This document shows, one piece after another, positions 35,729-50,445 of a stretch of 64,000 bases of DNA. Where the stretch lies: NCBI GenBank assembly GCA_947630765.1, contig CANRIX010000001.1, forward strand, positions 26,399 through 90,398. Direction: 5' to 3'. Positions within the stretch are counted from its first letter, which is position 1. Each line of letters opens with the position of its first letter. Both the position numbers and the translations under genes were made by a program. This DNA is from an uncultured Clostridia bacterium. Lineage in GTDB: Bacteria; Bacillota; Clostridia; Oscillospirales; CAG-382. The notes beneath the pieces were generated by a model. The model had not been told where the DNA came from, did no database searches, and saw only the letters and a program-made list of their open reading frames with translations.

Positions 35729-36733
35729 TTACCTGCGGGGGTCGTAGAAACCGACCTTGCGGTACACCTTCGCGAGCGTCTTATTGGCGGCGTAGGAAGC
35801 GCGTTCCGCCCCCTCGATAAGGACCTGATTGAGGAACGCCTTGTCCGCCATATACCGCTCGTATTCCTTCTGGATCCCGCTAAGCAGGTCCGCGACCGCT
35901 TCCCCGACCGCCAGCTTGAATTCGCCGTACCCCTTTCCGGCGAACTCCCGCTCGATTTCCCCGTCGGTCTTTCCCGTCACGGCGGAATAGATGTTCATCA
36001 GATTGTTGATCCCGTGCTTGCCCTCCGCACGGCGAACCTCGCCGTCGGAATCCGTCACCGCCTTGCGGATCTTCCGCAGGACGACGTCCTTCGGGTCCAG
36101 CACAAAAATCGTCCCGTCCCCGCTTTCGGACTTGCTCATCTTTTTGGTCGGATCGGAGAGGGAGCGGATGCTCGCACTGTTCTGCGTCGTGAGCGCTTCG
36201 GGGATGCGGAAGGTCTCGCTGTAGACCCCATTGAAGCGGTTGGCGATGTCGCGGGCAAGCTCGACGTGCTGCGTCTGGTCCTTGCCGACCGGGACGCAGT
36301 CCGCCTGGTACAGCAGGATGTCCGCCGCCATCAGCACCGGGTAGGTATACAGTCCGCCGTTGATATTATCCGCGTGCCGGGCGGATTTATCCTTGAACTG
36401 CGTCATGCGGTTCAGCTCACCCATCATCGTGTAGCAGTCGAGCACCCACGCGAGCTGGGAATGCGCCGGGACCATGCTCTGTAAAAACAGGGTGATCTTT
36501 TCCGGGTCCAGCCCTGCGGCGAGGTAGATAGCGGCGGTCTTGAGACAGTTTTGCCGCAGCTCCGCCGGGACCTGCCGTACCGTGATCGTATGCAGGTCCG
36601 CAAGCATATAGTAGCACAGGAAATCGTCCTGCATCTTCGTCCAGTTGCGCAGAGCGCCGAGGTAATTCCCGATGGTGAGCGTGCCGGACGGTTGGATGCC
36701 GGACAGGACGATTTTCTTTCTTGCTTCTTCCAT
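35729..36733 (-). CDS. trpS: tryptophan--tRNA ligase
   Basis: Start placed at MEEARKKIVLSGIQPSGTLTIGNYLGA (HIGH-class motif). KMSKS motif present. Confidence 0.92.
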   Translation of the reverse strand: MEEARKKIVLSGIQPSGTLTIGNYLGALRNWTKMQDDFLCYYMLADLHTITVRQVPAELRQNCLKTAAIYLAAGLDPEKITLFLQSMVPAHSQLAWVLDCYTMMGELNRMTQFKDKSARHADNINGGLYTYPVLMAADILLYQADCVPVGKDQTQHVELARDIANRFNGVYSETFRIPEALTTQNSASIRSLSDPTKKMSKSESGDGTIFVLDPKDVVLRKIRKAVTDSDGEVRRAEGKHGINNLMNIYSAVTGKTDGEIEREFAGKGYGEFKLAVGEAVADLLSGIQKEYERYMADKAFLNQVLIEGAERASYAANKTLAKVYRKVGFYDPRR

Positions 36734-36795
36734 AACGTTTGACCGTTCCTTCTTCCCGCTTTCTGCGGGAGGTTTTTGCAAAAACATACAAGTAT

Positions 36796-36824
36796 AGTAT
36801 AGCATAGAAACGGGCAAATTTCAA
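36796..36824 (-). promoter_or_regulatory. sigma-A-type promoter of trpS
   Basis: Minus strand reads TTGAAA, 17-nt spacer, TATACT, about 60 nt upstream of the trpS ATG. Confidence 0.55.
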
Positions 36825-37010
36825 TAAATTTCCTGCAAAAAAGTTCCAGGATTTCAAAAAAAATCCCCCTTTCGGGGCGAAAAAGACAGTTTTGCATATT
36901 TATTCGTTCGGCTTTTTTGCCTTTTCCTGTGTGGAAGTCTGCACCGCAAAATCGGATTTGGAAAGTATCACACCGGGATATTTTCCGAATGGCGGAAACT
37001 TTCCGCCGTC

Positions 37011-37050
37011 GAAAAAAAGGAAAACGGGCGGCTCGAAAGCCGTCCGTTTT
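37011..37050 (-). terminator. rho-independent terminator after the 37058-37579 ORF
   Basis: Minus strand shows stem ACGGACGGC / GCCGCCCGT around loop tttcga, followed by ttttccttttttt. Confidence 0.6.
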
Positions 37051-37057
37051 CGCTCGT

Positions 37058-37579
37058 TTACCCCTCGAAATCGAATCCGATGACGCGCCAGGTTTTCCGC
37101 CCCGCGTCCGTTTCGGAAGTAGTGCATGTAAATCGTATATGGAAGTAGAACACCTGCTGGTCGCCCCATTCGTCCGTCCGCGTGAAATCATATTCCGCGT
37201 AAGCGCTCGGCGAACCGTCCGAACCGAAGCCGCATAACGTCAACCCCTGCTCGTCCAGCGAGCTGATCCGCTCGCTGAACGCCCCCATGAGCGCGTCCTC
37301 GTCGGCGACAGTCAGCGCGGTCTTACGATCGCCTTTCAGGTAAGCGTTAAAGAAGCGAAACGCGGTGTTTTGCAGGCTCACATACCGTTCCGTCCCGCAA
37401 AAGGTTTCCAGTGTCAGCGGCATCCCATACGAGCCGCCCGCAAACGTGAGGTCTGTCGCGCTTTCCGCCGGAACGGGCGTCAGTTCGCACGAGAGGACCT
37501 TCCAATCCGCGTTCCAGTCCGCGTCTCCGGGGTTCGTGCAGCGACGCGGATACGCCTTGGTTCGCGTTTTGCAGGGCAT
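37058..37579 (-). CDS. uncharacterised 173-aa ORF, possibly the displaced C-terminus of the upstream M56 gene
   Basis: No signal peptide or convincing RBS. Same reading frame as the 811-aa gene. Its block SLQNTAFRFFNAYLKGDRKTALTVADE resembles the last 30 aa of the 811-aa protein (RLQQTVYRFLSDCIRTDQKGALAFARN). See the findings. Confidence 0.4.
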   Translation of the reverse strand: MPCKTRTKAYPRRCTNPGDADWNADWKVLSCELTPVPAESATDLTFAGGSYGMPLTLETFCGTERYVSLQNTAFRFFNAYLKGDRKTALTVADEDALMGAFSERISSLDEQGLTLCGFGSDGSPSAYAEYDFTRTDEWGDQQVFYFHIRFTCTTSETDAGRKTWRVIGFDFEG

Positions 37580-37690
37580 ACCGCACGGTCAGGTCCGCTT
37601 TTTGGGTGTCCGTCCCGTCGAGCGTATACGGTTCAAATCGGATCGACGTATACGCTACGCGGTCAAACGGTCCGACGACGACAACGGAAA

Positions 37691-40126
37691 CTATGCGGGC
37701 AGGGTGTCCACATTTCGCGCGAAGGCCAGCGCCCCCTTCTGGTCAGTGCGAATGCAGTCGCTGAGAAAGCGGTAGACCGTCTGCTGCAATCGCAGGAATT
37801 CGGGTTCCCGAACGAACGCGCCCATAGTAACCGCTTGCCCTTCCGACGGCGAACCGGGCCCGACGGAGGCATATACCGACGCGTCTTTCAAGTAAAGCAC
37901 GCCGTTTTCGTCACGTGAAACGACGCCGGTCAAAACTTTTTCGCCCGTCATGCCGTCCGGCAGGGATACGGCAAGGGTTTCGGCTTCGCAAAAATCGCAT
38001 ACGCCGTTTTCCCCCTCCACGCAGACGGTCAGCTCGTCCGGGAGACGCAGGGTGTAGGCGTATCCGTTCGACCCGTCCGCAAGCGTTCCGCGCACCGCGA
38101 TCTGTCGTTCGACGTAAGGGGCAAGCCCGGATGCGTCCTCGTATTGTGTACCAAAATTCAAAAGGAAGTAGTTTTTTGCGCTCCCGATCGGGAAGAAATC
38201 CCATTTCGCACTTATTTCGTATTCCACGTTGCTCAAAAACACATACCGAACATTCGCGCTGGTCGAAACGAAGGATTGATACCACTGCCCGTTCTCCAAC
38301 TGCACCATTTCCTGCGTTTCATACTGCAAGTCTCCGGGGTCGCGGTAGGTTTCCGGGTCCTGCGCATGAAGCGACAATGCGTTCACATAGGCGGCTTTCA
38401 AAGGCGTCGGAAGGAACAAGGCGACGTCCTTCAGGTAAAAGATCCCGTCCTCGTCCAGCATGACCACGCCGGTCACCATTTCCGAATCAAATTCGTCCTT
38501 ATCCCAGAACAGCGGACCCAGCCAGCGCGGAAGCGCGATCCTGTCCGTTTGGTAGAATGCACAGGTCCCGCCTTCCCCTTCCACGCAAACGGTCAGTTCG
38601 TCCGTAAGCACCAAGACGCGGGAATATTTTTCGCCATCTCCGCCGTCCAGTTCTCCCCATACCGCGATCGGGCGTTCGACGTAACGGGCGACGCCGGTCT
38701 CGTCCTCGAATCGTGCGCCGGCATTGTAGAGATAATAGGTTTTTTCGCTTCCGATCGGGATGAAGTCCCAATTCGCGTTCATCTCGTACTCCGCGTTGCT
38801 CAAGAACACATACCGAATGTTCACGTCGGACGCGACGTAGGACTGGTACCATTGCCCGTCCTCCAATTGCACCATTTCCCGCGTTTCGCTCTGCAATTCA
38901 CCGGGATCGCGGTAGGTTTCCGGGTCCTGCACATGCAGCGAGGAAGCATTTTTATAATCCGCCTCTATACCGGCGACGGTTGTCCCGCCGGATGTTTCGC
39001 CGGACGTTTCGTTTGATACCTCGCTCGACGTTTCTCCAGACGTTTCGTTTGATGTTTCGTTTGATACCTCGCTCGATGTTCCTTCAGATGTTTCACCTGA
39101 GGTTTCGTCCGATACCTCGCTTGATGCCTCCTCCGACGTTCCGGCAGCCGTGCATACCATCAGCGTCAGAAGTGCAGCGCAGAGGACGACGGTCAGGCAG
39201 ATCGCCCAAACGGGAATTTTTCCTTTCATAATACGCGTAATCCTCTCTTTCACACTGACTTTGCCAAAGGACAACGGTGAGAAGACGGGGCTTCCGCCTT
39301 GACTGACAGAAAGCAGCGCCAGCGAATACGCTTTCCTGTCCGCTTCCGCCATGTTTTTGACGGTTTTTTCGTCGCAGGCGTACTCGATGTCCTTGCTGAG
39401 CAGGAGGTACGCCGCCCAAACCAGCGGGTTGAACCAGTGTACGCAAAGCACCAGAAACGCGAGCGGTTTGAGGATATGGTCGAACCGCTTGATGTGCGAC
39501 TCCTCGTGTGCGATGTAGTACGGCCAGTCCGCCCGGTTCGCGGATGCCGGGATATAGATCAGCGGGCGGAAGAACCCGGACACGAACGGGGAACAATTTT
39601 GCCCCAGCACGCGCACCCGGCTGTCGTAAACGACCGCGTCCCGCACCTGGTAATGCAGCAGCAGCGAACTCGCAGTCAGGTAGCCGAGCATGACAATGAT
39701 CCCGCACACCCAGACCAAGGAAAGGATTTCGACCACGTCCACCGTCGATTCCTCCGGCGATGCGGCGCCCGGGACGGGTTGCGCAACGTCAGTGTCCAAC
39801 GTCGGGACGCTGTCCGGGACGACGTTCGGCACGTCGGTGTACGGCGTGGAGACGGTACCCGGGACGACGTTCGGCACATCATTCTGCACCGCCTCCGACA
39901 CGGACTGCGAAACGATTTCCTCCGCAGGCGACGGAAAGGGCGAAACGGAAGCCGGAAGCTCGATCAGCCCGACGGGAATGACCAGCCGTGCGAACACGAC
40001 CGCCCAAATCACGCACCGAAGAAAGGACGGGCCCTTCTTCAAAAGCGGGCGCAGGAGAATCGCCGCAAGCACGGCGATCGACGGAATGATTGAAGCGCTG
40101 CACAGACCGAGAAACAGTTCTTTCAT
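37691..40126 (-). CDS. M56 (BlaR1/MecR1-like) membrane sensor-protease, paralog A, with a large novel ectodomain
   Basis: 811 aa. TM helices, the M56 zinc site YIAHEESHIKRFDH, and FNPLVW..EYACDE. This is followed by a further TM, an S/E/T-rich linker and two about 180-aa tandem domains. Confidence 0.85.
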   Translation of the reverse strand: MKELFLGLCSASIIPSIAVLAAILLRPLLKKGPSFLRCVIWAVVFARLVIPVGLIELPASVSPFPSPAEEIVSQSVSEAVQNDVPNVVPGTVSTPYTDVPNVVPDSVPTLDTDVAQPVPGAASPEESTVDVVEILSLVWVCGIIVMLGYLTASSLLLHYQVRDAVVYDSRVRVLGQNCSPFVSGFFRPLIYIPASANRADWPYYIAHEESHIKRFDHILKPLAFLVLCVHWFNPLVWAAYLLLSKDIEYACDEKTVKNMAEADRKAYSLALLSVSQGGSPVFSPLSFGKVSVKERITRIMKGKIPVWAICLTVVLCAALLTLMVCTAAGTSEEASSEVSDETSGETSEGTSSEVSNETSNETSGETSSEVSNETSGETSGGTTVAGIEADYKNASSLHVQDPETYRDPGELQSETREMVQLEDGQWYQSYVASDVNIRYVFLSNAEYEMNANWDFIPIGSEKTYYLYNAGARFEDETGVARYVERPIAVWGELDGGDGEKYSRVLVLTDELTVCVEGEGGTCAFYQTDRIALPRWLGPLFWDKDEFDSEMVTGVVMLDEDGIFYLKDVALFLPTPLKAAYVNALSLHAQDPETYRDPGDLQYETQEMVQLENGQWYQSFVSTSANVRYVFLSNVEYEISAKWDFFPIGSAKNYFLLNFGTQYEDASGLAPYVERQIAVRGTLADGSNGYAYTLRLPDELTVCVEGENGVCDFCEAETLAVSLPDGMTGEKVLTGVVSRDENGVLYLKDASVYASVGPGSPSEGQAVTMGAFVREPEFLRLQQTVYRFLSDCIRTDQKGALAFARNVDTLPA
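37868..38959 (-). repeat. two tandem domain repeats of about 175-190 codons inside the paralog A ectodomain
   Basis: aa ~390-578 (YKNASSLHVQDPETYRDPGELQSETREMVQLEDGQWYQSYV...) versus aa ~579-753 (YVNALSLHAQDPETYRDPGDLQYETQEMVQLENGQWYQSFV...). Both end with G(I/V)(F/L)YLKD(V/A). Confidence 0.85.
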
Positions 40127-40230
40127 TTTCTATCCCCTCCCTGTCGTCGTTGAAATCTCGTTTTGATTGGTATTGCTTGTTATTCCTTGAGACTAGTATA
40201 TCACACTATACCTATCTTGTCAAGAGGTTT
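39150..40230 (-). repeat. copy 1 of a roughly 1.1-kb direct duplication (promoter, leader, first ~325 codons of the M56 gene)
   Basis: Protein residues 1-325 are near-identical to paralog B. From EILSLVWVCG to AALLTLM only two residues differ (KGKIPVW vs KGKNPAW). Upstream promoter sequence is also shared. Boundaries are approximate. Confidence 0.85.
40195..40223 (-). promoter_or_regulatory. promoter of M56 paralog A
   Basis: Minus strand reads TTGACA, 17-nt spacer, TATACT, with an extended -10 TG (gTGaTATACT). Confidence 0.6.
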
Positions 40231-40324
40231 TTGAAAATTTTTTTGATCGCACGCTCTCGCATGACGGTCGTGACAGCCGCACCGTTCCTCTCGCGACGCG
40301 GAAACCCCGTTTTCCCCTTCTCTG

Positions 40325-42082
40325 TTACGGACGAATCTGCGTTTCGGAAACCGGTTTGCCGACTTTTTGGTTCTGAATCAGGTCGAGAAGGGTCTCGGAC
40401 GATACCGTATAGTATGTGCGGTCGGAATCGTCCCCGCTTTCCTCACCGGCAGCAAGCAGCAGGAAATCCGGCTCCATGCTGTCCCCGTCCTGCGTCTGGA
40501 AAAGCTGTATTTCGTCGATTTGTTCCGCTTCCGACGGACTTTCGATCAATTCGCGGGAGGCGCCTGCCGAAAAATCGTAAAAGTACACGGCACTCTTCGC
40601 ATCCTCGCGCAGGAGATACAAAAAGCCGTAATTACTTCCCTGCGGGTCATACCAGGTCAGCCCCGAAACCGTCTGTCCGTCCGAAAGGTCCGCGAGTTTT
40701 TCCGTTTCCTTGAGGTCCGCATTGAAAAACCAAATCGCATTGTCCGACGCGACCGCCGCCCCGACGTCATTTACGCCGATCGAACGGATCTCGTCCGCTT
40801 CAAATACGATTTCGCAGCCCGAACCGTTCGCGTATTCGCTCAAAAGCAGGACGTTCCGGCTGCTCTCGTCGTCATAATCGTATTCCACATGGTACAGGAA
40901 TCGCTGATACCCGTCCAAACGGTAAACGCTGTGCAAATAAAAATCGGTGGAGCCGAGCCCGTATTCGCTCAATTGCTTTTTCAGTGCCTCGATCTCCGCG
41001 TTATCCAAAGGCAGATTTTGGCCATCGCCCGACGCATCGGAATCGGCGCTCGTATCCGCGTTATCGCTTTCGTTCGTCGCGTCGCCCGTCGGTGTGCTTC
41101 CGAGCGAGCACGCCATCAGCGTCAGAAGTGCCGCGCAGAGGACGACGGTCAGGCAGATCGCCCAAGCGGGATTTTTTCCTTTCATAATACGCGTAATCCG
41201 CTCTTTTACGCTGACTTTTCCGAAGGACAGCGGTGAGAAGACGGGGCTTCCGCCTTGACTGACGGAAAGCAGCGCCAGCGAATACGCTTTCCTGTCCGCT
41301 TCCGCCATGTTTTTGACGGTTTTTTCGTCGCAGGCGTACTCAATATCCTTGCTGAGCAGGAGGTACGCCGCCCATACCAGGGGGTTGAACCAGTGCACGC
41401 AAAGTACCAGAAATGCGAGCGGTTTGAGGATATGATCGAACCGCTTGATGTGTGATTCCTCGTGCGCGATGTAGTACGGCCAGTCCGCCCGGTTCGCGGA
41501 TGCCGGGATATAGATCAACGGGCGGAAGAACCCGGACACAAACGGGGAGCAGTTCTGCCCCAGCACGCGCACCCGGCTGTCGTAAACGACCGCGTCCCGC
41601 ACCTGGTAGTGCAGCAGCAGCGAACTCGCAGTCAGGTAGCCGAGCATGACAATGATCCCGCACACCCAGACTAGGGAAAGGATTTCGACCACGTCCACCG
41701 TCGATTCTGCTGCCGAATCGGCGCCCGGAACGGGTTGCACAACGTCAGTGTCCAACGTCGGGACGCTGTCCGGGATAATGTTCGGCACGTCGGTGTACGG
41801 CGTGGAAACGGTACCCGGAACGACGTTCGGCACATCATTCTGCACCGCGTCCGGCATAGATAGCGAAACAGTTTCCTCCGCAGTCGACGCGAAGGGCGAA
41901 ACGGGAGCCGGGAGCTCAATCAGCCCGACGGGAATGACCAGCCGAGCAAACACGACCGCCCAGATCACGCAGCGAAGAAAGGACGGGCCCTTCTTCAGCA
42001 GCGGGCGCAGGAGAATCGCCGCAAGCACGGCGATCGACGGAATGACCGAAGCGCTGCACAGACCAAGAAACAGTTCTTTCAT
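40325..42082 (-). CDS. M56 (BlaR1/MecR1-like) membrane sensor-protease, paralog B, with a different ectodomain
   Basis: 585 aa. N-terminal ~325 aa as in paralog A, including HEESHIKRFDH. The C-terminal ~255 aa (LGSTPTGDATNESDN...YRLDGYQRFLYHVEYDYDD...) is unrelated to paralog A. Confidence 0.85.
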   Translation of the reverse strand: MKELFLGLCSASVIPSIAVLAAILLRPLLKKGPSFLRCVIWAVVFARLVIPVGLIELPAPVSPFASTAEETVSLSMPDAVQNDVPNVVPGTVSTPYTDVPNIIPDSVPTLDTDVVQPVPGADSAAESTVDVVEILSLVWVCGIIVMLGYLTASSLLLHYQVRDAVVYDSRVRVLGQNCSPFVSGFFRPLIYIPASANRADWPYYIAHEESHIKRFDHILKPLAFLVLCVHWFNPLVWAAYLLLSKDIEYACDEKTVKNMAEADRKAYSLALLSVSQGGSPVFSPLSFGKVSVKERITRIMKGKNPAWAICLTVVLCAALLTLMACSLGSTPTGDATNESDNADTSADSDASGDGQNLPLDNAEIEALKKQLSEYGLGSTDFYLHSVYRLDGYQRFLYHVEYDYDDESSRNVLLLSEYANGSGCEIVFEADEIRSIGVNDVGAAVASDNAIWFFNADLKETEKLADLSDGQTVSGLTWYDPQGSNYGFLYLLREDAKSAVYFYDFSAGASRELIESPSEAEQIDEIQLFQTQDGDSMEPDFLLLAAGEESGDDSDRTYYTVSSETLLDLIQNQKVGKPVSETQIRP

Positions 42083-42250
42083 TTTCTATTCCCTCCCTGT
42101 CGTCGTTGGAATTCTTTTGCCAGATCCACTTTTCCGGGGAAATGCATGCCTTTGCGATTCCGATGTACGCATCTCGCTGTCTCGTTTGAATTAGTATTGT
42201 TCGTTATTCCTATGCGGTGAGTATATCACAATATACCCATCCTGTCAAGA
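41105..42250 (-). repeat. copy 2 of the roughly 1.1-kb direct duplication
   Basis: Same as copy 1, but the leader carries an extra 68 nt (42112-42179). Boundaries are approximate. Confidence 0.85.
42220..42248 (-). promoter_or_regulatory. promoter of M56 paralog B
   Basis: Minus strand reads TTGACA, 17-nt spacer, TATACT (tTGtgaTATACT context). Homologous to the paralog A promoter. Confidence 0.6.
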
Positions 42251-42333
42251 GGTTTTTGAAAGATTTTATATTTTTTTCAAATTCCATGAAATATGGCTCC
42301 TTGAGCGGCACGAAAAAAATTTTTTAATGCCTG

Positions 42334-42362
42334 TTGACAAATGTAAGTGCATGTGTTATACT
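42334..42362 (+). promoter_or_regulatory. promoter of the blaI operon
   Basis: TTGACA (42334-42339), 17-nt spacer, TATACT (42357-42362), with an extended -10 TG. Confidence 0.65.
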
Positions 42363-42383
42363 GCACTTACAAAAGTAAGTGGA
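42343..42383 (+). promoter_or_regulatory. putative BlaI operator: three half-sites forming two overlapping palindromes
   Basis: GTAAGTGCA (42343-42351), 10-nt spacer, TGCACTTAC (42362-42370), aaaa, GTAAGTGGA (42375-42383). The first pair is a perfect 9-bp inverted repeat spanning the -10. The second pair (CACTTAC-aaaa-GTAAGTG) covers the +1/RBS region. Confidence 0.6.
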
Positions 42384-42397
42384 AAGGGAGCACCCAT

Positions 42398-42775
42398 ATG
42401 GAACTGAAAGAAATTCATCTCGGAGAAGCGGAGACGCGCTTCGCAAAAATCGTCTGGCAGAACGAACCTGTCACCACGAGCGCACTATATCGCCTGAGCA
42501 AGGAGGCGCTCGGCTGGACCAACAGCACGACCTTCACCGTTTTGCGGCGACTGTGCAAAAAGGGACTTTTTCGGACGGAAGAAGGCGTTGTCACGTCCCT
42601 CGTCTCGCGAAAGGACTTCTTTGCCGAGCAAAGCCAGAAATTCGTCAGCGAGAGCTTCGACGGGTCGTTCCCGTCCTTCCTCGCCGCCTTTTCGGAGCGG
42701 CAGAAACTCACCCCGGAGGAGATCGAAGCGGTCCGCAGCATGATCGAAAAATTTGAAAAGGGGGAAGGATCATGA
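42398..42775 (+). CDS. blaI: BlaI/MecI/CopY family transcriptional repressor
   Basis: 125 aa from MELKEIHLGEAETRFAKIVWQ. Winged-helix block TTFTVLRRLCKKGLFRTEEG and C-terminal dimerisation-type helix. Overlaps the next gene by 4 nt. Confidence 0.85.
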   Translation: MELKEIHLGEAETRFAKIVWQNEPVTTSALYRLSKEALGWTNSTTFTVLRRLCKKGLFRTEEGVVTSLVSRKDFFAEQSQKFVSESFDGSFPSFLAAFSERQKLTPEEIEAVRSMIEKFEKGEGS

Positions 42776-44046
42776 ACCTGGAGCAATTGTTTTTGTCCCT
42801 GCTCAATCGCAGCCTTGCGGCGTGCTGGCTGATCCTTGCGATCATCATTCTGCGTCCGTTTCTGCGCAGAGTGTCGCGGTCGCTTTGCTGTGCGTTGTGG
42901 GGTCTTGTGGCGTTTCGGTTGCTTTGCCCGTTCCCGGTTCGGAGCGTGTTGAGCCTGATCCCGAGCGTGGAAACCGTTCCGACGGATCTCGCTTCGGCGA
43001 CGACCATCCTTGACGGGCTCCTTCCCGTAGGATCGCAAACGGGAGACGCTCTTACGTCCTCCCCGTCCGACGTCCCCGCGACCGCACCCGCCGCGCTAAC
43101 GCTTTTGCAGGTCCTGACGTGGATATGGCTGATCGGGGTTGCGATGCTCCTCCTATATGCGTTGGCGTCCTCCCTGCGGATATACCGCTGTGTGCGGGAG
43201 TCTGTTCGGCAGGAAGGCGGGTACTGGATGTGCGACCGGGTCGATTTTCCGTTCGTGATCGGCTTTTTCCGCCCGCGTATCATTCTGCCGTTTGAAGTGG
43301 ATCGGCAGGACCTTCCGTACATTTTAGCGCACGAGCGGGCGCATATGGCACGGCACGACCATTGGCGCAAGCCGATCGCATTCCTGCTCCTTTCCGTGTT
43401 CTGGTTCCAGCCGGTGTTCTGGATCGCCTATCATCTGCTTTGCAGGGATGCGGAATTTGCCTGCGACGGGCGTGCGCTCCGCAGTCTGGGAATCGACAAG
43501 GAAAGCAAGGCGGGCTACGCGATGGCACTGCTGAAAAGCTGCCCCCAGCGCTCCTACGCCGCAAAGCTGACCGGCCCGTTGGCGTTCGGTGGTCTGCAGA
43601 TCAAGCGTCGGGTGGATTCCGTGCTGACGTATAAGCGACCCACGACGGTGCGGATGCTGGCGGCGCTGCTGATGTGCGCGGTGCTGGCGGTATGCTTCCT
43701 GACCGACCCGGAAGTCGAAGCGCATGCGGTCGCGGACACCTCCCCGGCGGAAACCGCCCCGATCGAAACCCCTCCCGAAGAGGACGCGACGTCCCTGCCC
43801 GCCGAAGCGCCGGAAGGAATGACGGCGAACCGATCGGAGCAGGAGGACGAAACCACAATATGGTATCTTTCTGAAATCTTTCAGTATTTCGTGGAAGAGC
43901 TTGGATACGACCCGCAGTACATCTTGGACTGGGCGATCGATCAGGTAAATCGTGAATATCCGGACGGCGAAAATTTTATGTTGATCATTGATATTGACGT
44001 CGCCACCTATCTGGAAACGGGCAAAATGATCAAGGTCGCGCAATAA
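42772..44046 (+). CDS. M56 (BlaR1-like) membrane sensor-protease, paralog C (cognate of blaI)
   Basis: 424 aa. Blocks FFRPRIILP, zinc site ILAHERAHMARHDH and FQPVFW..EFACD. A short acidic linker precedes a unique ~90-aa C-terminal domain. Confidence 0.85.
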   Translation: MNLEQLFLSLLNRSLAACWLILAIIILRPFLRRVSRSLCCALWGLVAFRLLCPFPVRSVLSLIPSVETVPTDLASATTILDGLLPVGSQTGDALTSSPSDVPATAPAALTLLQVLTWIWLIGVAMLLLYALASSLRIYRCVRESVRQEGGYWMCDRVDFPFVIGFFRPRIILPFEVDRQDLPYILAHERAHMARHDHWRKPIAFLLLSVFWFQPVFWIAYHLLCRDAEFACDGRALRSLGIDKESKAGYAMALLKSCPQRSYAAKLTGPLAFGGLQIKRRVDSVLTYKRPTTVRMLAALLMCAVLAVCFLTDPEVEAHAVADTSPAETAPIETPPEEDATSLPAEAPEGMTANRSEQEDETTIWYLSEIFQYFVEELGYDPQYILDWAIDQVNREYPDGENFMLIIDIDVATYLETGKMIKVAQ

Positions 44047-44087
44047 GCTCTCGTGGAAAAATTCCGACAAAAAAAGAAAAGGGGGAA

Positions 44088-45044
44088 ATGAAGATGAAAG
44101 TTACACGGCAGTTTCCAAAACTTTTGGCGGTGGGTTTGGTTCTCGCAATGACCCTTTCGTCCCTTTCCGGGTGCGATAAGGAGGAACAGACCTCGGCGGG
44201 GATGGTCAGCGATTTTGAGTCGCAAACGCACATTCAGGTCAGCGCACCGGCGGCGGAATCGACTTCCGGCGAAACAATTTCCGGCGAAACGAGCGATAGC
44301 ACGTCGAAAGAACCGCTTTCCGGCGAATTTGTCGTCAGCGAAAAGAAGTACGATTACAAAGATGGGAATCTGGAACTGCTCTACGTCGAAAATCAAACGA
44401 ACCGGCATTGCAACGTGACAATTCACGGGAAATACCTCGACGAGAACGGCGAAACGATTCGGGAGGAAACGCAAACCTATATTTGTTTCTCTGCAGGCTG
44501 GGCGAATTACTTTCAATTCTATCCGAGAATGACATTTAACGGTTTTTCCTACGAGATAGAAACCGAAGAATATGTGAAGGAACCGCTTTATAGCGACGAG
44601 AACGGAACGCCGCTTGTGTCTTACCTCAATATCCGTTATGTGAAAAATATGTATTGGATACGCGATTTTTTTACCGGAGGCGTAGAGGCAAGGACCATGG
44701 TATTCGATACTGTCATAGAAAATCATCACCCGACAGTATCCATCAGCGCAGAGTACTACGTCATTGTATTTGACGAACAAGGGGAAATCTATTTATTGGG
44801 TACCGAATATGACGATATGGCTTTTGGAGTTGGAAATGGTGTCTTTGGTACGTGTATCGACCCGGTCGGGACGGGGGACAATGGGGAAACGCGCGTTCCT
44901 ACACCGATTTGGATGCAGGAGTTAGGACAGGATGAAACGGTTCCGGAGAACGTGCAGGGCGTCTTTACCGCCGTTTACGCTTTGATCGATGTGGTCGATT
45001 ATCAAGAATATGTGAAGCAACTTCATTCGGACGGGATTGGGTAA
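44088..45044 (+). CDS. lipoprotein, paralog 1 of an uncharacterised tandem family
   Basis: Lipobox LSSLSGC, a TSGET-type linker, then conserved blocks EFVVSEKKYDYKD, NRHCNVTIHGKYLDENGETIREETQT and PENVQGVFTAV. Confidence 0.85.
   Translation: MKMKVTRQFPKLLAVGLVLAMTLSSLSGCDKEEQTSAGMVSDFESQTHIQVSAPAAESTSGETISGETSDSTSKEPLSGEFVVSEKKYDYKDGNLELLYVENQTNRHCNVTIHGKYLDENGETIREETQTYICFSAGWANYFQFYPRMTFNGFSYEIETEEYVKEPLYSDENGTPLVSYLNIRYVKNMYWIRDFFTGGVEARTMVFDTVIENHHPTVSISAEYYVIVFDEQGEIYLLGTEYDDMAFGVGNGVFGTCIDPVGTGDNGETRVPTPIWMQELGQDETVPENVQGVFTAVYALIDVVDYQEYVKQLHSDGIG
44262..44291 (+). repeat. 2 copies of the 15-nt unit acttccggcgaaacg (TSGET linker repeat)
   Basis: Read directly from the sequence. Paralog 3 has 3 copies of this unit. 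Confidence 0.85.
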
Positions 45045-45072
45045 AGAAAACGGAAGAAAGGAAGGATTGGTT

Positions 45073-45951
45073 TTGTACATGCAAGGGAAAAGGATTTTTA
45101 CGTTTGTTTTACTGCTCGCGATGACGATTTCCGTATTTTCCGGGTGTAACAAGGAGGAACAGACCTCGGCGGGGACGGTCAGCGATTTTGAGTCGCAGGC
45201 GCATTTTCAAGTCGGCGTGTCGGAGGGGGAATCCTCTTCCGGCGATACTTCAAATGCACCGGTTTCGGGTGAATTTGTCGTCAGCGATAAAAAGTATGCT
45301 TACAACGACGCGAATCTCGTGCTGCTGAATGTGGAAAACAAAACGGACCGCCACTACAATGTGACGATTCACGGGAAATACCTCGACGAGAACGGGGAAA
45401 CGATTCGGGAAGAAACGCAAACATTCGAGGCTTTTCCCGCCGGATGGTCGAACCACTTCATTTTCTACCCGAAAATCGCTTTTGACAGATTTACATTTGA
45501 ACTGGAAACAGAAGCGTACGTGCCTGACCGTCTGACCTCCGACAGCGAGGGGAACCCATTAGCGTCCTACATGGAATTATCCTACGAAAAAACTTTGCAA
45601 TGGCTGGATGGTTGGGGAAATGATCACGGTTCTCTGTATTTTACCGCATTTATGGAAAATCATCATCCGAGCGTGACGATCGGTTCAGATTTTCATGTGA
45701 TCCTGCTTGACGCGAATGGGGAAATCTATATAACGGATTATGAGTTCATTGATAATGGTACAAGCGGTACTCAGTGTACGCCTGTTGGCGGCGAGGACGA
45801 CGGGAAAAACAGTACGGAAATTTATCTCTTAGAACACATCCTTGAGGGAAGGGAACCGATCCCTGAAACTGTGCAGGGGAAGTTTACTGCAATTTTTGCG
45901 ATTGCGACACCGTGGGACATGGATGTAGCGGCGCAAAGGGGTTTGGTTTGA
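45073..45951 (+). CDS. lipoprotein, paralog 2
   Basis: Lipobox SVFSGC. The start is TTG at 45073 by analogy with paralog 3, or ATG at 45079. Shared blocks NVTIHGKYLDENGETIREETQTFEAFPAGWSN. Confidence 0.85.
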   Translation: MYMQGKRIFTFVLLLAMTISVFSGCNKEEQTSAGTVSDFESQAHFQVGVSEGESSSGDTSNAPVSGEFVVSDKKYAYNDANLVLLNVENKTDRHYNVTIHGKYLDENGETIREETQTFEAFPAGWSNHFIFYPKIAFDRFTFELETEAYVPDRLTSDSEGNPLASYMELSYEKTLQWLDGWGNDHGSLYFTAFMENHHPSVTIGSDFHVILLDANGEIYITDYEFIDNGTSGTQCTPVGGEDDGKNSTEIYLLEHILEGREPIPETVQGKFTAIFAIATPWDMDVAAQRGLV

Positions 45952-46028
45952 GTCATTCTGAGGAATGGCTGAGAACCGTGGTTGGTTGGACGGGTTGAGC
46001 CGAATGGGACAGAAAGGAAGGATTTGTT

Positions 46029-46982
46029 TTGTATCTGCAAGGAAAAAGGATTTTTACGTTTGTTTTACTGCTCGCGATGACGCTTTCCGTATTTTCCGGG
46101 TGCGATAAGGAGGAACAGACCTCAGCGGGGACGGTCAGCGATTTTGAGTCGCAAACGCATATTCAGGTCAGCGCACCGGCGGCGGAATCGACTTCCGGCG
46201 AAACGACTTCCGGCGAAACGACTTCCGGCGAAACGAGCGATAGCACGTCGAAAGAACCGCTTACCGGCGAGTTTGTCGTCAGCGAAAAGAAGTATGACTA
46301 TAAAGACGCGAATCTGGAATTACTCTACGTCGAAAACCAGACGAACCGGCATTGCAACGTGACGATTCACGGGAAATACCTCGACGAGAACGGCGAAACG
46401 ATTCGGGAAGAAACACAGACTTTCGAGGCATTTCCGGCGGGCTGGTCGAACAACTTCATTTTCTACCCGAAAATCGCTTTTGACAGTTTCACCTATGAAT
46501 TGGAAACGGAAGAATATGTAACCGACCCGATGTTTTCCGACGCGGACGGGAATCCCCTTGCGTCCTACATCGAATTGACGTATGAGAAAAAATTGTATTG
46601 GATCCGTGGATCAGCGGGCGTAGATGAGAACGGTCACCCTATAGAAGCAAGAGAATTGTTATTCGACGCCGAAATGAAAAACAATCATCCGACGGTAACA
46701 ATAGGGGCAGACTTTCATGTGCTGGTTCTCGATACGGACGGAAACATTTTTATGACGGATTATGATTATCCCGTTCCATATGGCAATAGCGGAGCTATAA
46801 CAGGTCCTGTGGGGAGTGAAGATGATGGCAAATCCCTTACGCAGATTTGTCTTTTTCAGCAAGAACCGGGGCTTGACGAGATCATTCCGGAGAACGTACA
46901 GGGAGTATTTACCGCGGTTTTTGCGATAAAAGATGCCCTTGATTTTGAGAAACTTGCGGCGCAAGTCAAACAGCCCGAATAG
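46029..46982 (+). CDS. lipoprotein, paralog 3 (mosaic of paralogs 1 and 2)
   Basis: TTG start after RBS aaaggaagga. Signal peptide as in paralog 2, the next ~90 aa as in paralog 1, the middle as in paralog 2, and the PENVQGVFTAV end as in paralog 1. Confidence 0.85.
   Translation: MYLQGKRIFTFVLLLAMTLSVFSGCDKEEQTSAGTVSDFESQTHIQVSAPAAESTSGETTSGETTSGETSDSTSKEPLTGEFVVSEKKYDYKDANLELLYVENQTNRHCNVTIHGKYLDENGETIREETQTFEAFPAGWSNNFIFYPKIAFDSFTYELETEEYVTDPMFSDADGNPLASYIELTYEKKLYWIRGSAGVDENGHPIEARELLFDAEMKNNHPTVTIGADFHVLVLDTDGNIFMTDYDYPVPYGNSGAITGPVGSEDDGKSLTQICLFQQEPGLDEIIPENVQGVFTAVFAIKDALDFEKLAAQVKQPE
46191..46235 (+). repeat. 3 perfect tandem copies of the 15-nt unit acttccggcgaaacg
   Basis: Units at 46191, 46206 and 46221. 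Encodes TSGET x3. Confidence 0.95.
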
Positions 46983-47016
46983 ACCGCACACGATTGGGAA
47001 GGAAGGGTGAGAAACG

Positions 47017-47784
47017 GTGTTATTCTTACGGTCCTTATGGAAAAGCAAATACGACTTCCTCGCGGCGACGGCGATTCTGGTCGTGACGACGCAACTCTGG
47101 GAAGAACAGCGAATCCTCACCGAACCGGGGGTGAACAACTTCTTTCAGTCGTGCGAACTGCTCGTGCCGTTCCTCGTTCTGCTGCCGGTGTCGTTTCTGC
47201 TGTACGACAATTACGAAATCGAATTGGGGCTTATCAACGGGGTCTCGACGCTGAAATTGGCGCTCTGCAAGTTCTTTTCGACCGTTGTCGCGACGCTAAT
47301 CCCGTCGGTCGCGTGCTGTTTGCTCGTGCGGGAGAAGTACTACTGGTGCAACCCGCTGAGTGTTCGGATTCCGCTGGAGGTGCCGGAACACTTCAGGCTC
47401 TATCTGGCGCTGTCCGCCGTCGTGACGACGCTGTTCTTCGCGTCGCTGTTCCTGCTGTTGCGGGTGGTTTTGCGGAACTGCTATGCGCCGGTGGGGCTGG
47501 GAATCCTCGTGTTTTCGCTGTTTCAGCCCCGTATGCAGGACGTTTGCGACCTGACCCTGCCGTTTTCGCAAGCCCTGTTCGACCCGTTCGTCACGCGCTA
47601 CCTTATCGGCGACGCGGTGGCGAACGCGGGATTTACCGTGGAGGCGACCGGGCAGGTCGTCGACCCGTTCCCGCATTTGTGGACGTATAACCGCCTGCTG
47701 TTCTTCGGTTTGGCGGTCGTGCTCCTCGCCGTAACCTGTATCCTGCTTCGGCGCGAAAACTTACACGAATCGTTCGGAGATTGA
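47017..47784 (+). CDS. polytopic membrane protein (putative ABC-associated permease component)
   Basis: 255 aa with a GTG start after RBS ggaaggaaggg and about 6 hydrophobic helices. Its stop overlaps the next ORF. Confidence 0.65.
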   Translation: MLFLRSLWKSKYDFLAATAILVVTTQLWEEQRILTEPGVNNFFQSCELLVPFLVLLPVSFLLYDNYEIELGLINGVSTLKLALCKFFSTVVATLIPSVACCLLVREKYYWCNPLSVRIPLEVPEHFRLYLALSAVVTTLFFASLFLLLRVVLRNCYAPVGLGILVFSLFQPRMQDVCDLTLPFSQALFDPFVTRYLIGDAVANAGFTVEATGQVVDPFPHLWTYNRLLFFGLAVVLLAVTCILLRRENLHESFGD

Positions 47785-47798
47785 AAGGAGAACGCCCT

Positions 47799-48677
47799 AT
47801 GAACATCGAAATTACCAACCTGACGAAAATCTACCCGCGCGGGAAGAAAAAGGCGCTCGACGGCGTCCATATCACGATTGGTTCCGGCATTTTCGGACTC
47901 ATCGGTCGGAACGGCGCGGGAAAAACCACGCTCATGCGGATTTTAGCGACCATTATGAAGCCCACCGACGGGATGATTACCTTCGACGGGAAGGATTTGC
48001 AGGAACACAAAGAAGAATTCCGTTCCTCGCTCGGCTACCTGCCGCAAAGCACGAAACTCATGCCGCGTCTGAACATCGTGGAGTTTCTGGACTACGTCTG
48101 TATTCTCCGCAAGAGGAAGGACAAGAAGGAACGCAAGGAAATCATCGCGAACGCGATTGAAACGGTCGGTCTCGTCGGCGAGGAAAAGAAACTGTTGCGT
48201 AGCTATTCCGGCGGGATGCTCCGGCGCGCGGGCATCGCGCAAGCGCTGATTGGCAACCCGAAAGTGCTTATCATCGACGAGCCGACGACCGGGCTTGACC
48301 CGGAGGAACGGCTGTACTTCCTGAACCTGCTTTCCCGTATCGCGGCGGAGCGAACGATCGTCTTTTCGACGCACATCACGGCGGACATCGAGCATTTGTG
48401 CAACAACATTTGCGTGCTGGAGCAGGGAAAAGTCGAGTACCTCGGCGACAAGACGTCGTTCGTGTCGCGTATCGACGGGAAGCTGTTCGAGCTGACCGGC
48501 ACGCCGGAGCAGGAGGCGCTGTTGCGGCAGAATTCCACCGTTACGTCGGTCGCGTATGTGGACGGCAAGCCGCAAGTGCGGTATGTCGCACCCGCGCCGG
48601 TCGTGGAGGGCTCGCAACCCGTTTCCCCGACGCTGGAGGACGCGTACATCTACGCCCTCGGCGGCGTGAAACGGTAA
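47799..48677 (+). CDS. ABC transporter ATP-binding protein (ABC-2/bacitracin-lantibiotic-type ATPase)
   Basis: Start placed at MNIEITNLTKIY. Walker A GRNGAGKTTL, signature YSGGMLRR, Walker B LIIDEPTTGLD. C-terminal extension of about 70 aa. Confidence 0.9.
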   Translation: MNIEITNLTKIYPRGKKKALDGVHITIGSGIFGLIGRNGAGKTTLMRILATIMKPTDGMITFDGKDLQEHKEEFRSSLGYLPQSTKLMPRLNIVEFLDYVCILRKRKDKKERKEIIANAIETVGLVGEEKKLLRSYSGGMLRRAGIAQALIGNPKVLIIDEPTTGLDPEERLYFLNLLSRIAAERTIVFSTHITADIEHLCNNICVLEQGKVEYLGDKTSFVSRIDGKLFELTGTPEQEALLRQNSTVTSVAYVDGKPQVRYVAPAPVVEGSQPVSPTLEDAYIYALGGVKR

Positions 48678-48692
48678 AGGGGGGTGGACGGT

Positions 48693-49559
48693 ATGTTCCG
48701 AACCATCTACAAAAATACATGGAAAACCCTGTTCCGCTCGGTGACGTTCTGGCTCGCCGTGCTGGTCCTGCTGGGGATTTCCGTGTTTCACGTTTCCACG
48801 CAAGTGTCCTTTTACTGGGAATCCGCCGAAAACGTTCAGCGGTTCGAGCCAGAGTACGTCCCCGAAGTCCTTCCGGAAAGTCTCGTGCAGGAGGTCGACA
48901 ATGTCGTCAGCGGCGGCTTTCTGGTGTATCAAATCGCCGTTTTCGCAATCATCGCGACGGTGCTGGTGCTGAACCGGGACTACGGCGACCAATTTTTCGA
49001 GATTGAAAAAGCCGCCGGGGTGTCGCCGTTCCGCTACACCGCCGGGCGGCTGGCGGCGCTTCTGACCATTTCGGTGGTCGCACTGGAGGTCTTTTCGTTC
49101 GCGGCCCTGCACGCGCTGCTCATCGGCAAAGGCGGCGTCGTGGGGCAGAGCGCCTTGCAGACTATGCTGACGACCTTCCCGCGCCTGACGTGCGGCGTGC
49201 TGTTCAAGGGGATCCCGCACCTGTGCTTCTACATCGGGTTGACCTACCTGTTCGGCACGCTGTTCCGCAACGGGCTCGTCGGCGGTGCGGCGGGGTTTGC
49301 GAACGCGATTTTCTACTATGTGACCTATATGCTGTATCGGTATGACGACGGCTGGGTCACCTACTTTCAATACTTTTGTCCGTCGCCGAATGTTTTGCGC
49401 TTCTATGTGGGCTACTTCGGGACGGCGAATGGGGAGCGTATCTTCGCGATGTACGGCGTTACGACGGGCGGCATGGTGTTTTGCGTTGCCTTCCTCGTCG
49501 GGGTCGCGCTACTGTGCGCGGCGGTGTCCTATTGGCGCACCCGCCGCCGCGAGACTTGA
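48693..49559 (+). CDS. ABC-associated polytopic membrane protein, paralog a
   Basis: Begins MFRTIYKNTWKTLFRSVTFWLAVLVLL. Shares NRDYGDQFFEIEKAAG with the next gene. Confidence 0.75.
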   Translation: MFRTIYKNTWKTLFRSVTFWLAVLVLLGISVFHVSTQVSFYWESAENVQRFEPEYVPEVLPESLVQEVDNVVSGGFLVYQIAVFAIIATVLVLNRDYGDQFFEIEKAAGVSPFRYTAGRLAALLTISVVALEVFSFAALHALLIGKGGVVGQSALQTMLTTFPRLTCGVLFKGIPHLCFYIGLTYLFGTLFRNGLVGGAAGFANAIFYYVTYMLYRYDDGWVTYFQYFCPSPNVLRFYVGYFGTANGERIFAMYGVTTGGMVFCVAFLVGVALLCAAVSYWRTRRRET

Positions 49560-49579
49560 AGTCCGGGGGGCGAGGGGGT

Positions 49580-50410
49580 GTGCTGTATCGGACGATCTGT
49601 AAAAACAGTTGGAAAACCCTTTTGCGGTCGTGGTCGTTCTGGCTTGCCGTGGCGGTCGCGGCGGCGATCGCGGTGCGCGAGGGCTTTACGGAGTATGTCA
49701 CATATGCTTCGGGGTACGAGCCGGCCGTGTTGTCCTACGAGCGTTATGTGCAGGGGATCTATCACAGGCTGCCAATGCTGCTGTCGATCGCTTTGCCGTT
49801 CCTTACGGTGATAACGACGGTTCTCGTTGTACATCGGGATTATGGGGATCAATTTTTCGAGATCGAAAAAGCTGCGGGGATCAATCCCGCAGACTACCTG
49901 TTCGGTCGGTTCAGCGTGATTGCTATTACGACGGCGGCCGCGCAGTGGGTGATCGGCTTTCTGTGTATCTCGGTATTTGTCGTTCGGAAAGGCGGCGTGT
50001 ACGGTCTGACCGCATGGCAGTCCTGTCTTGATTCCGCGTGGAGATTGCTTTGCATTGATTTGTGTGCGGCCCTTCCGATGATCCTGTTTTATCTTGGTCT
50101 GACGTATTTGCTCGGCGCCTTGCTTCGGAGCGGAATTGCAGCGGCGATCGGCGGTCTGGGGTGCAGTGTGGCAAATTATGCGTTCACGATCCTGTACCAG
50201 TACCGCGCATTTCAAACGTATTTCGATTATGTTTCGCCGCCGCCGAAGATGCTGCTGCGATATGTGGTCTACCATCGGGAGGCAAACGGCGGTATCCAGT
50301 TGATGGGCGCCACGTTTGAAAAAGCGCTGCTTTCCGCAGGGATTTTGGTCGCCTTTTTTGCCGTGTGCGCGGGATGCTGTTACGGCTTGGTCAAAAGAAG
50401 GGAATGTTGA
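49580..50410 (+). CDS. ABC-associated polytopic membrane protein, paralog b
   Basis: GTG start at 49580 after a G-rich RBS, giving (M)LYRTICKNSWKTLLRSWSFWLAVAV, parallel to paralog a. Contains HRDYGDQFFEIEKAAG. Confidence 0.7.
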   Translation: MLYRTICKNSWKTLLRSWSFWLAVAVAAAIAVREGFTEYVTYASGYEPAVLSYERYVQGIYHRLPMLLSIALPFLTVITTVLVVHRDYGDQFFEIEKAAGINPADYLFGRFSVIAITTAAAQWVIGFLCISVFVVRKGGVYGLTAWQSCLDSAWRLLCIDLCAALPMILFYLGLTYLLGALLRSGIAAAIGGLGCSVANYAFTILYQYRAFQTYFDYVSPPPKMLLRYVVYHREANGGIQLMGATFEKALLSAGILVAFFAVCAGCCYGLVKRREC

Positions 50411-50411
50411 T

Positions 50412-50445
50412 ACAAAAAAGGGCTTCCGGGAAACCCCGGAAGCCA
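50412..50445 (-). terminator. strong hairpin terminator between convergent operons
   Basis: GGGCTTCCGGG / CCCGGAAGCC stem (50420-50444). On the minus strand it is followed by TTTTTTG. It serves the GGGtGRT operon and probably also blocks the plus-strand operon. Confidence 0.7.

Follow-up and report, generated by a model that had tools for sequence, protein, structure and literature searches.

Partial tandem duplication of an M56 membrane protease gene with an exchanged extracellular domain in an uncultured Clostridia bacterium

In a stretch of 64,000 nucleotides (nt) from an uncultured gut Clostridia bacterium (Oscillospirales, CAG-382; contig CANRIX010000001.1 of assembly GCA_947630765.1), which is called the window here and whose positions serve as coordinates throughout, two consecutive minus-strand genes encode M56 (BlaR1-family) membrane metalloproteases of 811 and 585 amino acids (aa), just as the initial annotation of the sequence described them. 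We designate these genes A and B, and a further M56 gene is designated C. The only gene of the window for a BlaI-type repressor, blaI, lies divergent from A and B and is followed by C, the window holding one blaI and three M56 genes. Contigs of relatives are given L-numbers and homologous proteins P-numbers. The features of the A/B pair, with open reading frame abbreviated as ORF, ribosome-binding site as RBS and transmembrane helix as TM, are the following.

37691-40126, minus strand: gene A, M56 (BlaR1-family) membrane metalloprotease, 811 aa; ORF with core, S/T/E linker, two ectoA copies and truncated tail
40325-42082, minus strand: gene B, M56 membrane metalloprotease, 585 aa; ORF with core as in A, short acidic linker and ectoB
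39149-40156, minus strand: repeat copy in A, comprising 30 nt of leader with the RBS, codons 1-325 and base 1 of codon 326 (ungapped alignment)
41105-42112, minus strand: repeat copy in B (ungapped alignment)
40195-40223, minus strand: promoter of A, TTGACA-17-TATACT, extended -10 (TG); conserved in B, L001 and L002
42220-42248, minus strand: promoter of B, TTGACA-17-TATACT with TG-extended -10; the leader matches single-copy orthologs
39494-39508 (A) and 41450-41464 (B), minus strand: HEESH zinc-binding motif, aa 207-211 (alignment to BlaR1)
39743-39955 (A) and 41699-41911 (B), minus strand: outer loop between TM2 and TM3 (aa 58-128 of A), positional equivalent of BlaR1 EL1
38975-39151, minus strand: S/T/E-rich linker of A, aa 326-384 (degenerate 12-nt repeats, translation)
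38399-38974, minus strand: ectoA copy 1, aa 385-576 (internal repeat, homologs)
37865-38398, minus strand: ectoA copy 2, aa 577-754 (beta-rich AlphaFold2 model)
37694-37864, minus strand: truncated tail of A (comparison with the L001 ortholog)
37691-37693, minus strand: premature TAG of A (CAG in the L001 ortholog)
37058-37579, minus strand: stranded C-terminus remnant of A, ORF of 173 aa (comparison with the L001 ortholog)
40997-41107, minus strand: linker of B, aa 326-362 (first nine codons match L001 and L002)
40328-40996, minus strand: ectoB, aa 363-585 (predicted small beta-propeller-like fold)

Membership in the protease family is given by profiles. The Pfam model PF05569 (Peptidase_M56) scores 136.9 bits in A (residues 8-298), 136.3 in B and 143.7 in C against a cut-off of 31, and the NCBIfam model blaR1_generic gives 60-62 bits against a cut-off of 400, with only the protease part covered. 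The C-terminal parts of all three proteins have no match in Pfam or NCBIfam, residues 326-811 of A being without a Pfam match, and the search for a beta-lactam sensor found no transpeptidase match in Pfam and no match past residue 298. By these profiles A and B are M56 proteases without a beta-lactam-binding domain. The 120 M56 relatives listed carry many different additional Pfam domains. Proteins A and B were looked up as exact sequences in a public gene index and had no record there, and no known RNA elements were found in the leaders of the two genes.

The catalytic residues are intact in both A and B. In alignment with BlaR1 of Staphylococcus aureus (chains 8exs/8exp), H207EESH211 corresponds to H201EYAH205, E248YACD252 (ExxxD) to E242xxxD246, and PLS286/F287GK to the autocleavage site S283/F284, at which cleavage in A and B is predicted; Arg295 of KER295 falls on the R293-R294 region (R294), the arginine that completes the active site. 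The zinc-binding and catalytic, autocleavage and arginine roles of these residues have been described for S. aureus BlaR1 (PMC9834060). A phmmer search of the core against the sequences of the Protein Data Bank (PDB) reached BlaR1 at best with E = 0.14 and served residue mapping only, membership being taken from the profiles. Hydropathy predicts TM1 at residues 6-24, TM2 at 39-57, TM3 at 129-147, a re-entrant segment at 218-243 and TM4 at 306-324. Lysine and arginine are enriched in the loops 25-38 and 148-305 and lacking in the loop 58-128, and the C-terminal part is acidic. The predicted topology is therefore BlaR1-like, with both the N-terminus and the C-terminal domain outside and the protease, which contains the re-entrant segment, in the cytoplasm. 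As a separate observation, the end of TM4 reads as a conserved VAVCF[LM]T.P in most M56 homologs (P0026-P0143), and a lipobox-like L[ML]AC[ST] is found only in the A/B clade.

Local DNA alignment of A and B gives a single ungapped block of 1008 nt with 938 identities (93%), which settles the boundaries of the repeat at 39149-40156 and 41105-42112. Similarity sets in some 30 nt before the -35 element, and the leaders can be aligned, 68 nt of the B leader being missing from A. The promoter, the leader and about 325 codons had been said to be shared almost exactly: the promoter is indeed the same in both, near-consensus in each, but the halves are not that close as DNA, in which 70 nucleotide differences, mostly synonymous, amount to about 7% divergence. 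Over codons 1-323 there are 41 codons that differ synonymously only and 17 amino-acid differences, 14 of which lie in aa 60-125 (Fisher p = 5.5e-7), and aa 126-323 holds only I304N and V306A, which agrees both with the two-residue difference noticed earlier between EILSLVWVCG and AALLTLM and with the clustering noticed in the loop. A is closest to B and B to A, since their core differs by 0.22 synonymous substitutions per synonymous site (dS) versus 0.35-0.37 to the single ortholog on L001, a contig from a related genome. Judged from these comparisons, the pair is a genuine partial tandem duplication of the M56 signalling half, promoter included.

How this half stayed so alike in the two copies bears on the age of the event. 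The initial annotation had proposed a recent duplication or ongoing gene conversion, and an amino-acid identity of 98.4% in the core (80% in the loop) is indeed what one would see if conversion had overwritten one copy, or if the duplication were very recent. However, dS is 0.22 over the whole repeat, with a ratio of non-synonymous to synonymous rates (omega) of 0.11, and it is even along it, at 0.21 for the loop and 0.225 for the remainder. Each of the twelve 84-nt bins holds 2-10 of the 70 differences, and the longest identical run of 77 nt is of the length that random placement of the differences produces (simulated mean 66, P(>=77) = 0.21). Moreover, omega is 0.02 over the 195 codons of the core, against 0.48 in the loop, and this large excess of synonymous over non-synonymous changes is the signature of purifying selection; the dS between the copies also exceeds the 0.14 that separates the adjoining trpS of this genome from that of L001. 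Because dS is 0.22, we judge that the duplication is not recent, and that purifying selection is what keeps the protease half alike. One observation leans the other way. L014 (ERZ27249360), from another sample, is a real allele that adjoins blaI, is 3.7% diverged and bears A-type and B-type sites in clusters; its diagnostic sites form 16 runs where 25.5 are expected (permutation p = 0.004), and some of the switches are just 2-8 nt apart, so that they do not come from an assembly chimera and suggest some past exchange between lineages. Such exchange between the A and B lineages is possible, and concerted evolution as the general cause of the likeness we consider unlikely.

The loop between TM2 and TM3, where the amino-acid differences gather, comprises 71 aa rich in P, V, D and T, with no K or R and 10 D or E, and is flanked by hydrophobic segments. 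It is hypervariable, with indels, among orthologs which all carry the A-type ectodomain; between A and the L001 ortholog, amino-acid identity is 89% in the core and 55% in the loop. Co-adaptation of the loop with a new sensor is an attractive idea because the loop EL1 of BlaR1 (residues 56-96) sits in the sensor active site and is displaced by the beta-lactam (PMC9834060). This candidate was rejected, as omega of 0.48 is below 1 and the loop is equally variable among orthologs with the same ectodomain. The differences between A and B would cluster there because the loop is hypervariable in all relatives, and relaxed constraint on a spacer-like segment is on these rates the simpler and better account.

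Outside the membrane, A and B have nothing recognizable in common. Their similarity ends at Cys325, at the outer end of TM4, and the initial annotation had called what follows unrelated. The C-terminal half of A consists of a linker, two diverged copies of a domain of about 180 aa, here termed ectoA, and a short tail, and that of B is a domain of 223 aa, ectoB, behind a shorter acidic linker. The linker of A is encoded by degenerate 12-nt tandem repeats (38976-39143) that give SE(V/T)S(N/G)ET; its length varies among A, L001, L002 and L003, which makes it a likely hotspot of slippage or recombination. The two ectoA copies differ by a dS of 1.3, and the domain is under purifying selection with omega of 0.16-0.27 (0.27 for copy 2 versus L001). 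BLASTP of the two C-terminal halves gives E = 0.43. An untrimmed profile comparison gave 89% for homology of ectoA and ectoB, which was rejected as an artefact of shared signal-peptide and linker columns; hhalign trimmed to the globular domains gives a probability of 0.6% and a score of 16.9 versus 13.9 +/- 2.7 for shuffled columns. The AlphaFold2 model of ectoA (predicted local distance difference test, pLDDT, 90) is beta-rich and has no match in the PDB by Foldseek, the best hit being weakly OB-like with E = 0.06. The ectoB model (pLDDT 83) finds beta-propellers in the PDB, among them oligogalacturonate lyase, TolB and DPP4 (best E 7e-6; template-modelling scores 0.5-0.58), and the domain is predicted to be a small beta-propeller-like fold. 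As far as these tools can see, ectoA and ectoB are unrelated in sequence and in predicted fold, and with A and B as closest relatives this supports the earlier proposal of a partial duplication of the signalling half combined with sensor replacement.

Both domains have relatives elsewhere as free proteins. Among 5.8 billion clustered proteins 21 relatives of ectoA were found, 17 of them free proteins of 253-321 aa and four M56 fusions; the free proteins have a signal peptide, a lipobox cysteine, an S/T/E-rich linker and one domain. When 1.84 billion representative proteins were searched exhaustively with HMMER, ectoB had two relatives only, P0001 and P0023, both free lipoproteins, and none turned up in phage records, IMG/VR or the JGI metagenomes. 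From these searches, both ectodomains belong to small families that otherwise occur as free lipoproteins of the same layout. The lipoboxes of the free homologs (LIAC, LCAC, LYGC) stand at N-terminal signal peptides.

The genomic contexts of these free proteins are informative as well. On L017 and L021 a free ectoA-type lipoprotein is the last gene, directly after a blaI-M56 operon whose M56 protein has 893 or 1222 aa, and on L016 and L020 it ends an operon that starts with an extracytoplasmic function (ECF) sigma gene and includes a possible anti-sigma gene. On L015 (P0014) and L018 (P0022) it adjoins an Amidase_2 gene, which codes for a peptidoglycan amidase, and of the ectoB-type loci P0001 (L008) adjoins such a gene and P0023 does not, which makes Amidase_2 neighbours in three of the eight lipoprotein contexts (six ectoA-type and two ectoB-type loci). 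In the window no Amidase_2 was found by tblastn. Since the same domains are either fused to M56 or stand last in blaI-M56 and ECF sigma operons, this fused-versus-split pattern suggests that the lipoprotein modules work together with membrane signalling proteins. At a distance of about 8 kb, L015 carries a holin gene as well. A phage origin of the ectodomains, which the holin and Amidase_2 neighbours of P0014 and P0001 had suggested, is unsupported, with no match in 50,697 phage records or IMG/VR; PHROG gave weak matches only (E 5e-4 to 8e-3), to the signal-peptide and linker part of P0001. Between gene B and L008 the DNA similarity (67%) ends at the stop codon, and no similarity to the 3'-untranslated region of L008 was found.

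The history of the locus can be followed in close relatives, which were found in three metagenome-assembled genomes, two from rabbit gut ('Lapin', uncultured Clostridia) and one assigned to an uncultured Ruminococcus. The flanks on L001 and L002 are 92-97% identical to the window, and between the equivalents of window position 50414 and of the trpS side each has a single A-type M56 gene; the ectoB segment and window 42319-50413 are both missing there. These two relatives carry no gene B. It is B that keeps the long ancestral leader, as in the single-copy orthologs, and its first nine codons after TM4 (CSLGSTPTG) match those of L001 (CSVGSAPTG) and L002 (CSVGNAPSD), so that the ectoB breakpoint lies inside the low-complexity linker and not in the helix. 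The linker of A starts like that of L003 (CTAAG... against CTAAR...).

Gene A for its part has changed at the other end. The L001 ortholog is a single ORF of 845 aa that spans the tail of A and the ORF at 37058-37579, and relative to it A shows CAG to TAG at 37691-37693, then deletions of 1 nt and 11 nt. The L002 ortholog is likewise truncated, and ectoA is present once in L001 and L003, about 1.5 times in L002 and twice in the window. Because of these truncations and the copy number that varies among close relatives, the extracellular part of gene A is, by comparison of the orthologs, structurally unstable. The stranded remnant ORF has an omega of 0.36 versus L001. As a side observation over 35729-40126, A and its L001 ortholog have a core dS of 0.35 with the loop identity given above, and the adjoining trpS has dS of 0.14 and 97.8% amino-acid identity; on these figures, the alleles at the locus are older than the rest of the genome or were exchanged. 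The nonsense mutation with frameshifts behind it, the truncated L002 ortholog, the unsteady ectodomain number and an M56 locus more diverged than its flanks are also what would be expected if A, B or both were redundant leftovers of rearrangement, on the way to pseudogenes and without a signalling role. Against this, omega for the 195 core codons has stayed at 0.02 after the duplication, neither gene has lost a catalytic residue, the ectoA domain is itself constrained, and both promoters are still near-consensus; decay of the paralogs is for these reasons rather improbable.

As the source appears to be a metagenome-type genome, it has also to be considered that two strain alleles of one locus, which differ in having ectoA or ectoB, were misjoined in tandem, or that a repeat was mis-resolved. 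L013 (ERZ27249610), from another sample, shows that assemblers do mis-thread this repeat: it has blaI, the upstream region of B, a core that is a B/A/B/A mosaic, and ectoA, has a coverage of 2.4x and shows a stop codon in HEXXH where one of the switches falls, and no independent contig joins ectoB to M56. L013 is probably a chimeric assembly of the same two paralogs, in which case both allele sets exist in another sample. In the window, by contrast, two intact ORFs stand behind separate promoters and RBSs, the junction from B to A (40127-40324) is unique sequence, and the copies differ in a way shaped by selection and by the 68-nt leader indel. Moreover, B with the ancestral leader and nine linker codons, and A with an L003-type linker start, speak for coherent evolution and not for collapse, and in other samples, too, blaI is linked to an upstream region of the B type (L013, L014), on L014 also to a B-type core. 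As the origin of the tandem arrangement an assembly artefact is unlikely, and we give it only a very slight chance.

On the other side of the intergenic region, the blaI operon comprises the following features.

42334-42371, plus strand: blaI promoter, TTGACA-17-TATACT, with inverted repeat, putative BlaI operator (sequence)
42398-42775, plus strand: blaI, BlaI/MecI/CopY-family repressor, 125 aa from ATG (PF03965)
42772-44046, plus strand: paralog C, M56 protease, 424 aa; start overlaps blaI stop (ORF, PF05569)
44088-46982, plus strand: three lipoprotein paralogs (lipobox, S/T/E linker)
47781-48677, plus strand: ABC ATPase (Pfam)
48684-49559, plus strand: putative permease 1 (no Pfam match)
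49376-50410, plus strand: putative permease 2 (sub-threshold ABC-2 match)
42319-50413, plus strand: 8.1-kb stretch missing from L001 and L002 (synteny break, junction sequences)

In the blaI product PF03965 (Penicillinase_R) scores 79.8 bits (cut-off 22.6), and the protein can be aligned over its full length with MecI (1sd6, 1okr) and BlaI (1sd4). The MecI cleavage site, LVLN/F at N101/F102, aligns with FLAA/F at A97/F98 of the window BlaI, the P1' phenylalanine being kept. A perfect inverted repeat, TGTAAGTGCA-N10-TGCACTTACA, with 10-nt arms at 42342-42371, lies across the -10 element of the blaI promoter, a putative operator whose half-site does not occur elsewhere in the window without mismatch; its sequence differs from the TACA/TGTA box of classical BlaI/MecI operators. 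Paralog C, which is co-oriented with blaI and overlaps it in coding sequence, is 32% identical to A/B and has an acidic ectodomain of 114 aa. The statement that three receptors face a single BlaI stands for the 64-kb window and does not reach beyond that scope.

In this 8.1-kb stretch blaI, C, the three lipoprotein paralogs, an ORF, the ABC ATPase and the two putative permeases follow one another on the plus strand. The operon holds no beta-lactamase gene or penicillin-binding protein (PBP) gene, but lipoproteins and an ABC transporter instead. The lipoproteins have 318, 304 and 317 aa, are 50-60% identical, each have a lipobox and an S/T/E linker and could be assigned to no family; G+C content dips to 0.48 there. 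With its three lipoprotein genes the blaI-C operon has the same layout as the split loci of the free relatives, and lipoproteins, ATPase and two putative permeases presumably recall the immunity operons of LanI/LanFEG-type bacteriocin systems. The stretch is placed in a T-run behind the terminator of the GGGtGRT gene, and no mobility gene was seen in it.

Taken as a whole, we consider it reasonably probable that an M56 gene was partially duplicated, that B received a lipoprotein-type ectodomain by exchange, and that the products signal in the BlaR1 manner. The duplicated unit begins some 30 nt ahead of the -35 element and extends over the leader and codons 1-325, which encode the four helices, the re-entrant segment and the cytoplasmic zinc protease, and in copy B the extracellular part past the first nine linker codons has been exchanged for an unrelated module. 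Since both modules share the layout of free lipoproteins, the swap took place at the boundary formed by the end of TM4, the lipobox and the low-complexity linker. As for the signalling, its substrate and its ligands, which we infer, A and B are most likely BlaR1-type membrane proteases gated by a ligand, with a sensor that is not one for beta-lactams. A ligand bound by the ectodomain would send a signal over the membrane that activates the gluzincin domain, which would cut a BlaI-family repressor before the conserved phenylalanine (Phe98), and this cleavage would derepress the operator-bearing operon of blaI, C, lipoproteins and ABC transporter, with A and B being transcribed from their own operator-less promoters.

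Several points weigh against this account. Gene A has a premature stop and a decaying 3' end, and its sensor may be compromised. The operator-like repeat was found at the blaI-C promoter only and not at those of A or B. Because no blaI was found in the flanks of the A-type orthologs on L001 and L002 (1.7 and 8.4 kb upstream, about 10 kb downstream), A and B may act on another substrate or on none. The ectoB model was built from three sequences, no other M56-ectoB fusion occurs in any database searched, and gene B is known from one assembly only.

A bolder version of the proposed signalling was also considered, in which TM4 and the lipobox cysteine form an internal lipoprotein signal peptide. 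The ectodomain would then be lipidated and released by Lgt and Lsp, and fused and split genes would encode the same two-piece sensor, with modules swappable at the boundary of lipobox and linker. KGK, TM4 and LMAC in B and in the L001-L003 orthologs do read like such an internal signal peptide; A has Val at -1 (LMVC), and the M56-ectoA fusions P0006 and P0019 lack a cysteine at that place. S. aureus BlaR1 is cut after TM4 by the signal peptidase SpsB (PMC9834060). As an extension of this version, the modules might recognise cell-wall amidases or lysins, since Amidase_2 genes recur beside the free lipoproteins. We regard this version as a long shot.

Among known systems, one close parallel is BlaR1/MecR1-BlaI/MecI of S. 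aureus and Bacillus licheniformis, which likewise combine an M56 gluzincin with HEXXH, ExxxD and a Ser/Phe autocleavage motif (PMC9834060), with four helices, a cytoplasmic protease, a C-terminal domain outside the cell and an extracellular loop that joins TM2 to TM3, all predicted in the present case, and with a neighbouring winged-helix repressor that has the P1' phenylalanine and an inverted repeat over its own promoter. However, A and B have no penicillin-binding sensor domain and no SXXK, score far under the NCBIfam BlaR1 cut-off, and are accompanied by no beta-lactamase or PBP2a gene. They are also monocistronic and divergent from or distant to blaI, unlike the genes of a blaI-blaR1 operon.

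Another parallel is RsiV, the lysozyme-binding anti-sigmaV factor, a single transmembrane receptor whose fate is decided by proteolysis. Anti-sigma receptors of this type resemble A and B as one-protein transmembrane receptors under control of proteolysis, with an extracellular domain that binds a macromolecule, and free ectoA lipoproteins also end ECF sigma/anti-sigma operons. Family and logic differ: RsiV is the substrate of proteolysis, whereas A and B are the protease.

A third group are the non-canonical BlaR-like systems, CenIR and the other BlaR-like genes of Clostridioides difficile, PvmSR of Pseudomonas aeruginosa and mycobacterial BlaIR, in which an M56 protein without a beta-lactam domain is paired with or near a BlaI-like repressor (PMC13081940; bioRxiv 10.64898/2026.08.03.742534). 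According to the 2026 CenIR preprint (PMC13081940), a C. difficile strain has seven BlaR-like genes, four of which adjoin blaI and six of which have non-homologous C-termini and no transpeptidase domain. In the same text, a beta-lactam-binding domain is given for only about 6% of some 15,000 BlaIR systems, and about 96% of BlaR homologs have a closely linked partner within five genes, which was sought as a BlaI-like protein. BlaR-like proteins without a transpeptidase domain are, by that account, the majority of the family and mostly BlaI-linked, and CenIR strongly controls an adjacent exported protein. Several paralogs per genome, non-homologous C-termini, some members not beside blaI and a gene for an exported protein just downstream, which in those systems is under their control, are likewise points of resemblance to the present locus. 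It differs in that A and B can be shown to be tandem duplicates and their breakpoint is mapped, and in that the C-termini are predicted to be large folded domains (pLDDT 83-90), common to free lipoproteins, and not short unstructured tails.

Several M56 sensors with diverse ectodomains being already established, what the locus adds is incremental: a duplication that is dated and whose breakpoint is mapped, together with the connection of its ectodomains to free lipoprotein families. Nevertheless, the non-beta-lactam BlaR-like proteases make up most of the family and almost none has a known signal. The locus shows, for this case, a route to a new sensor, in which promoter and core are duplicated and held by selection, and another module is spliced in at the linker outside TM4, the modules being drawn from a pool of lipoproteins encoded beside such signalling operons. 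With the same protease and two sensors, A and B form a natural matched pair in which the role of the ectodomain in activation, and the sharing of a repressor, can be asked directly.

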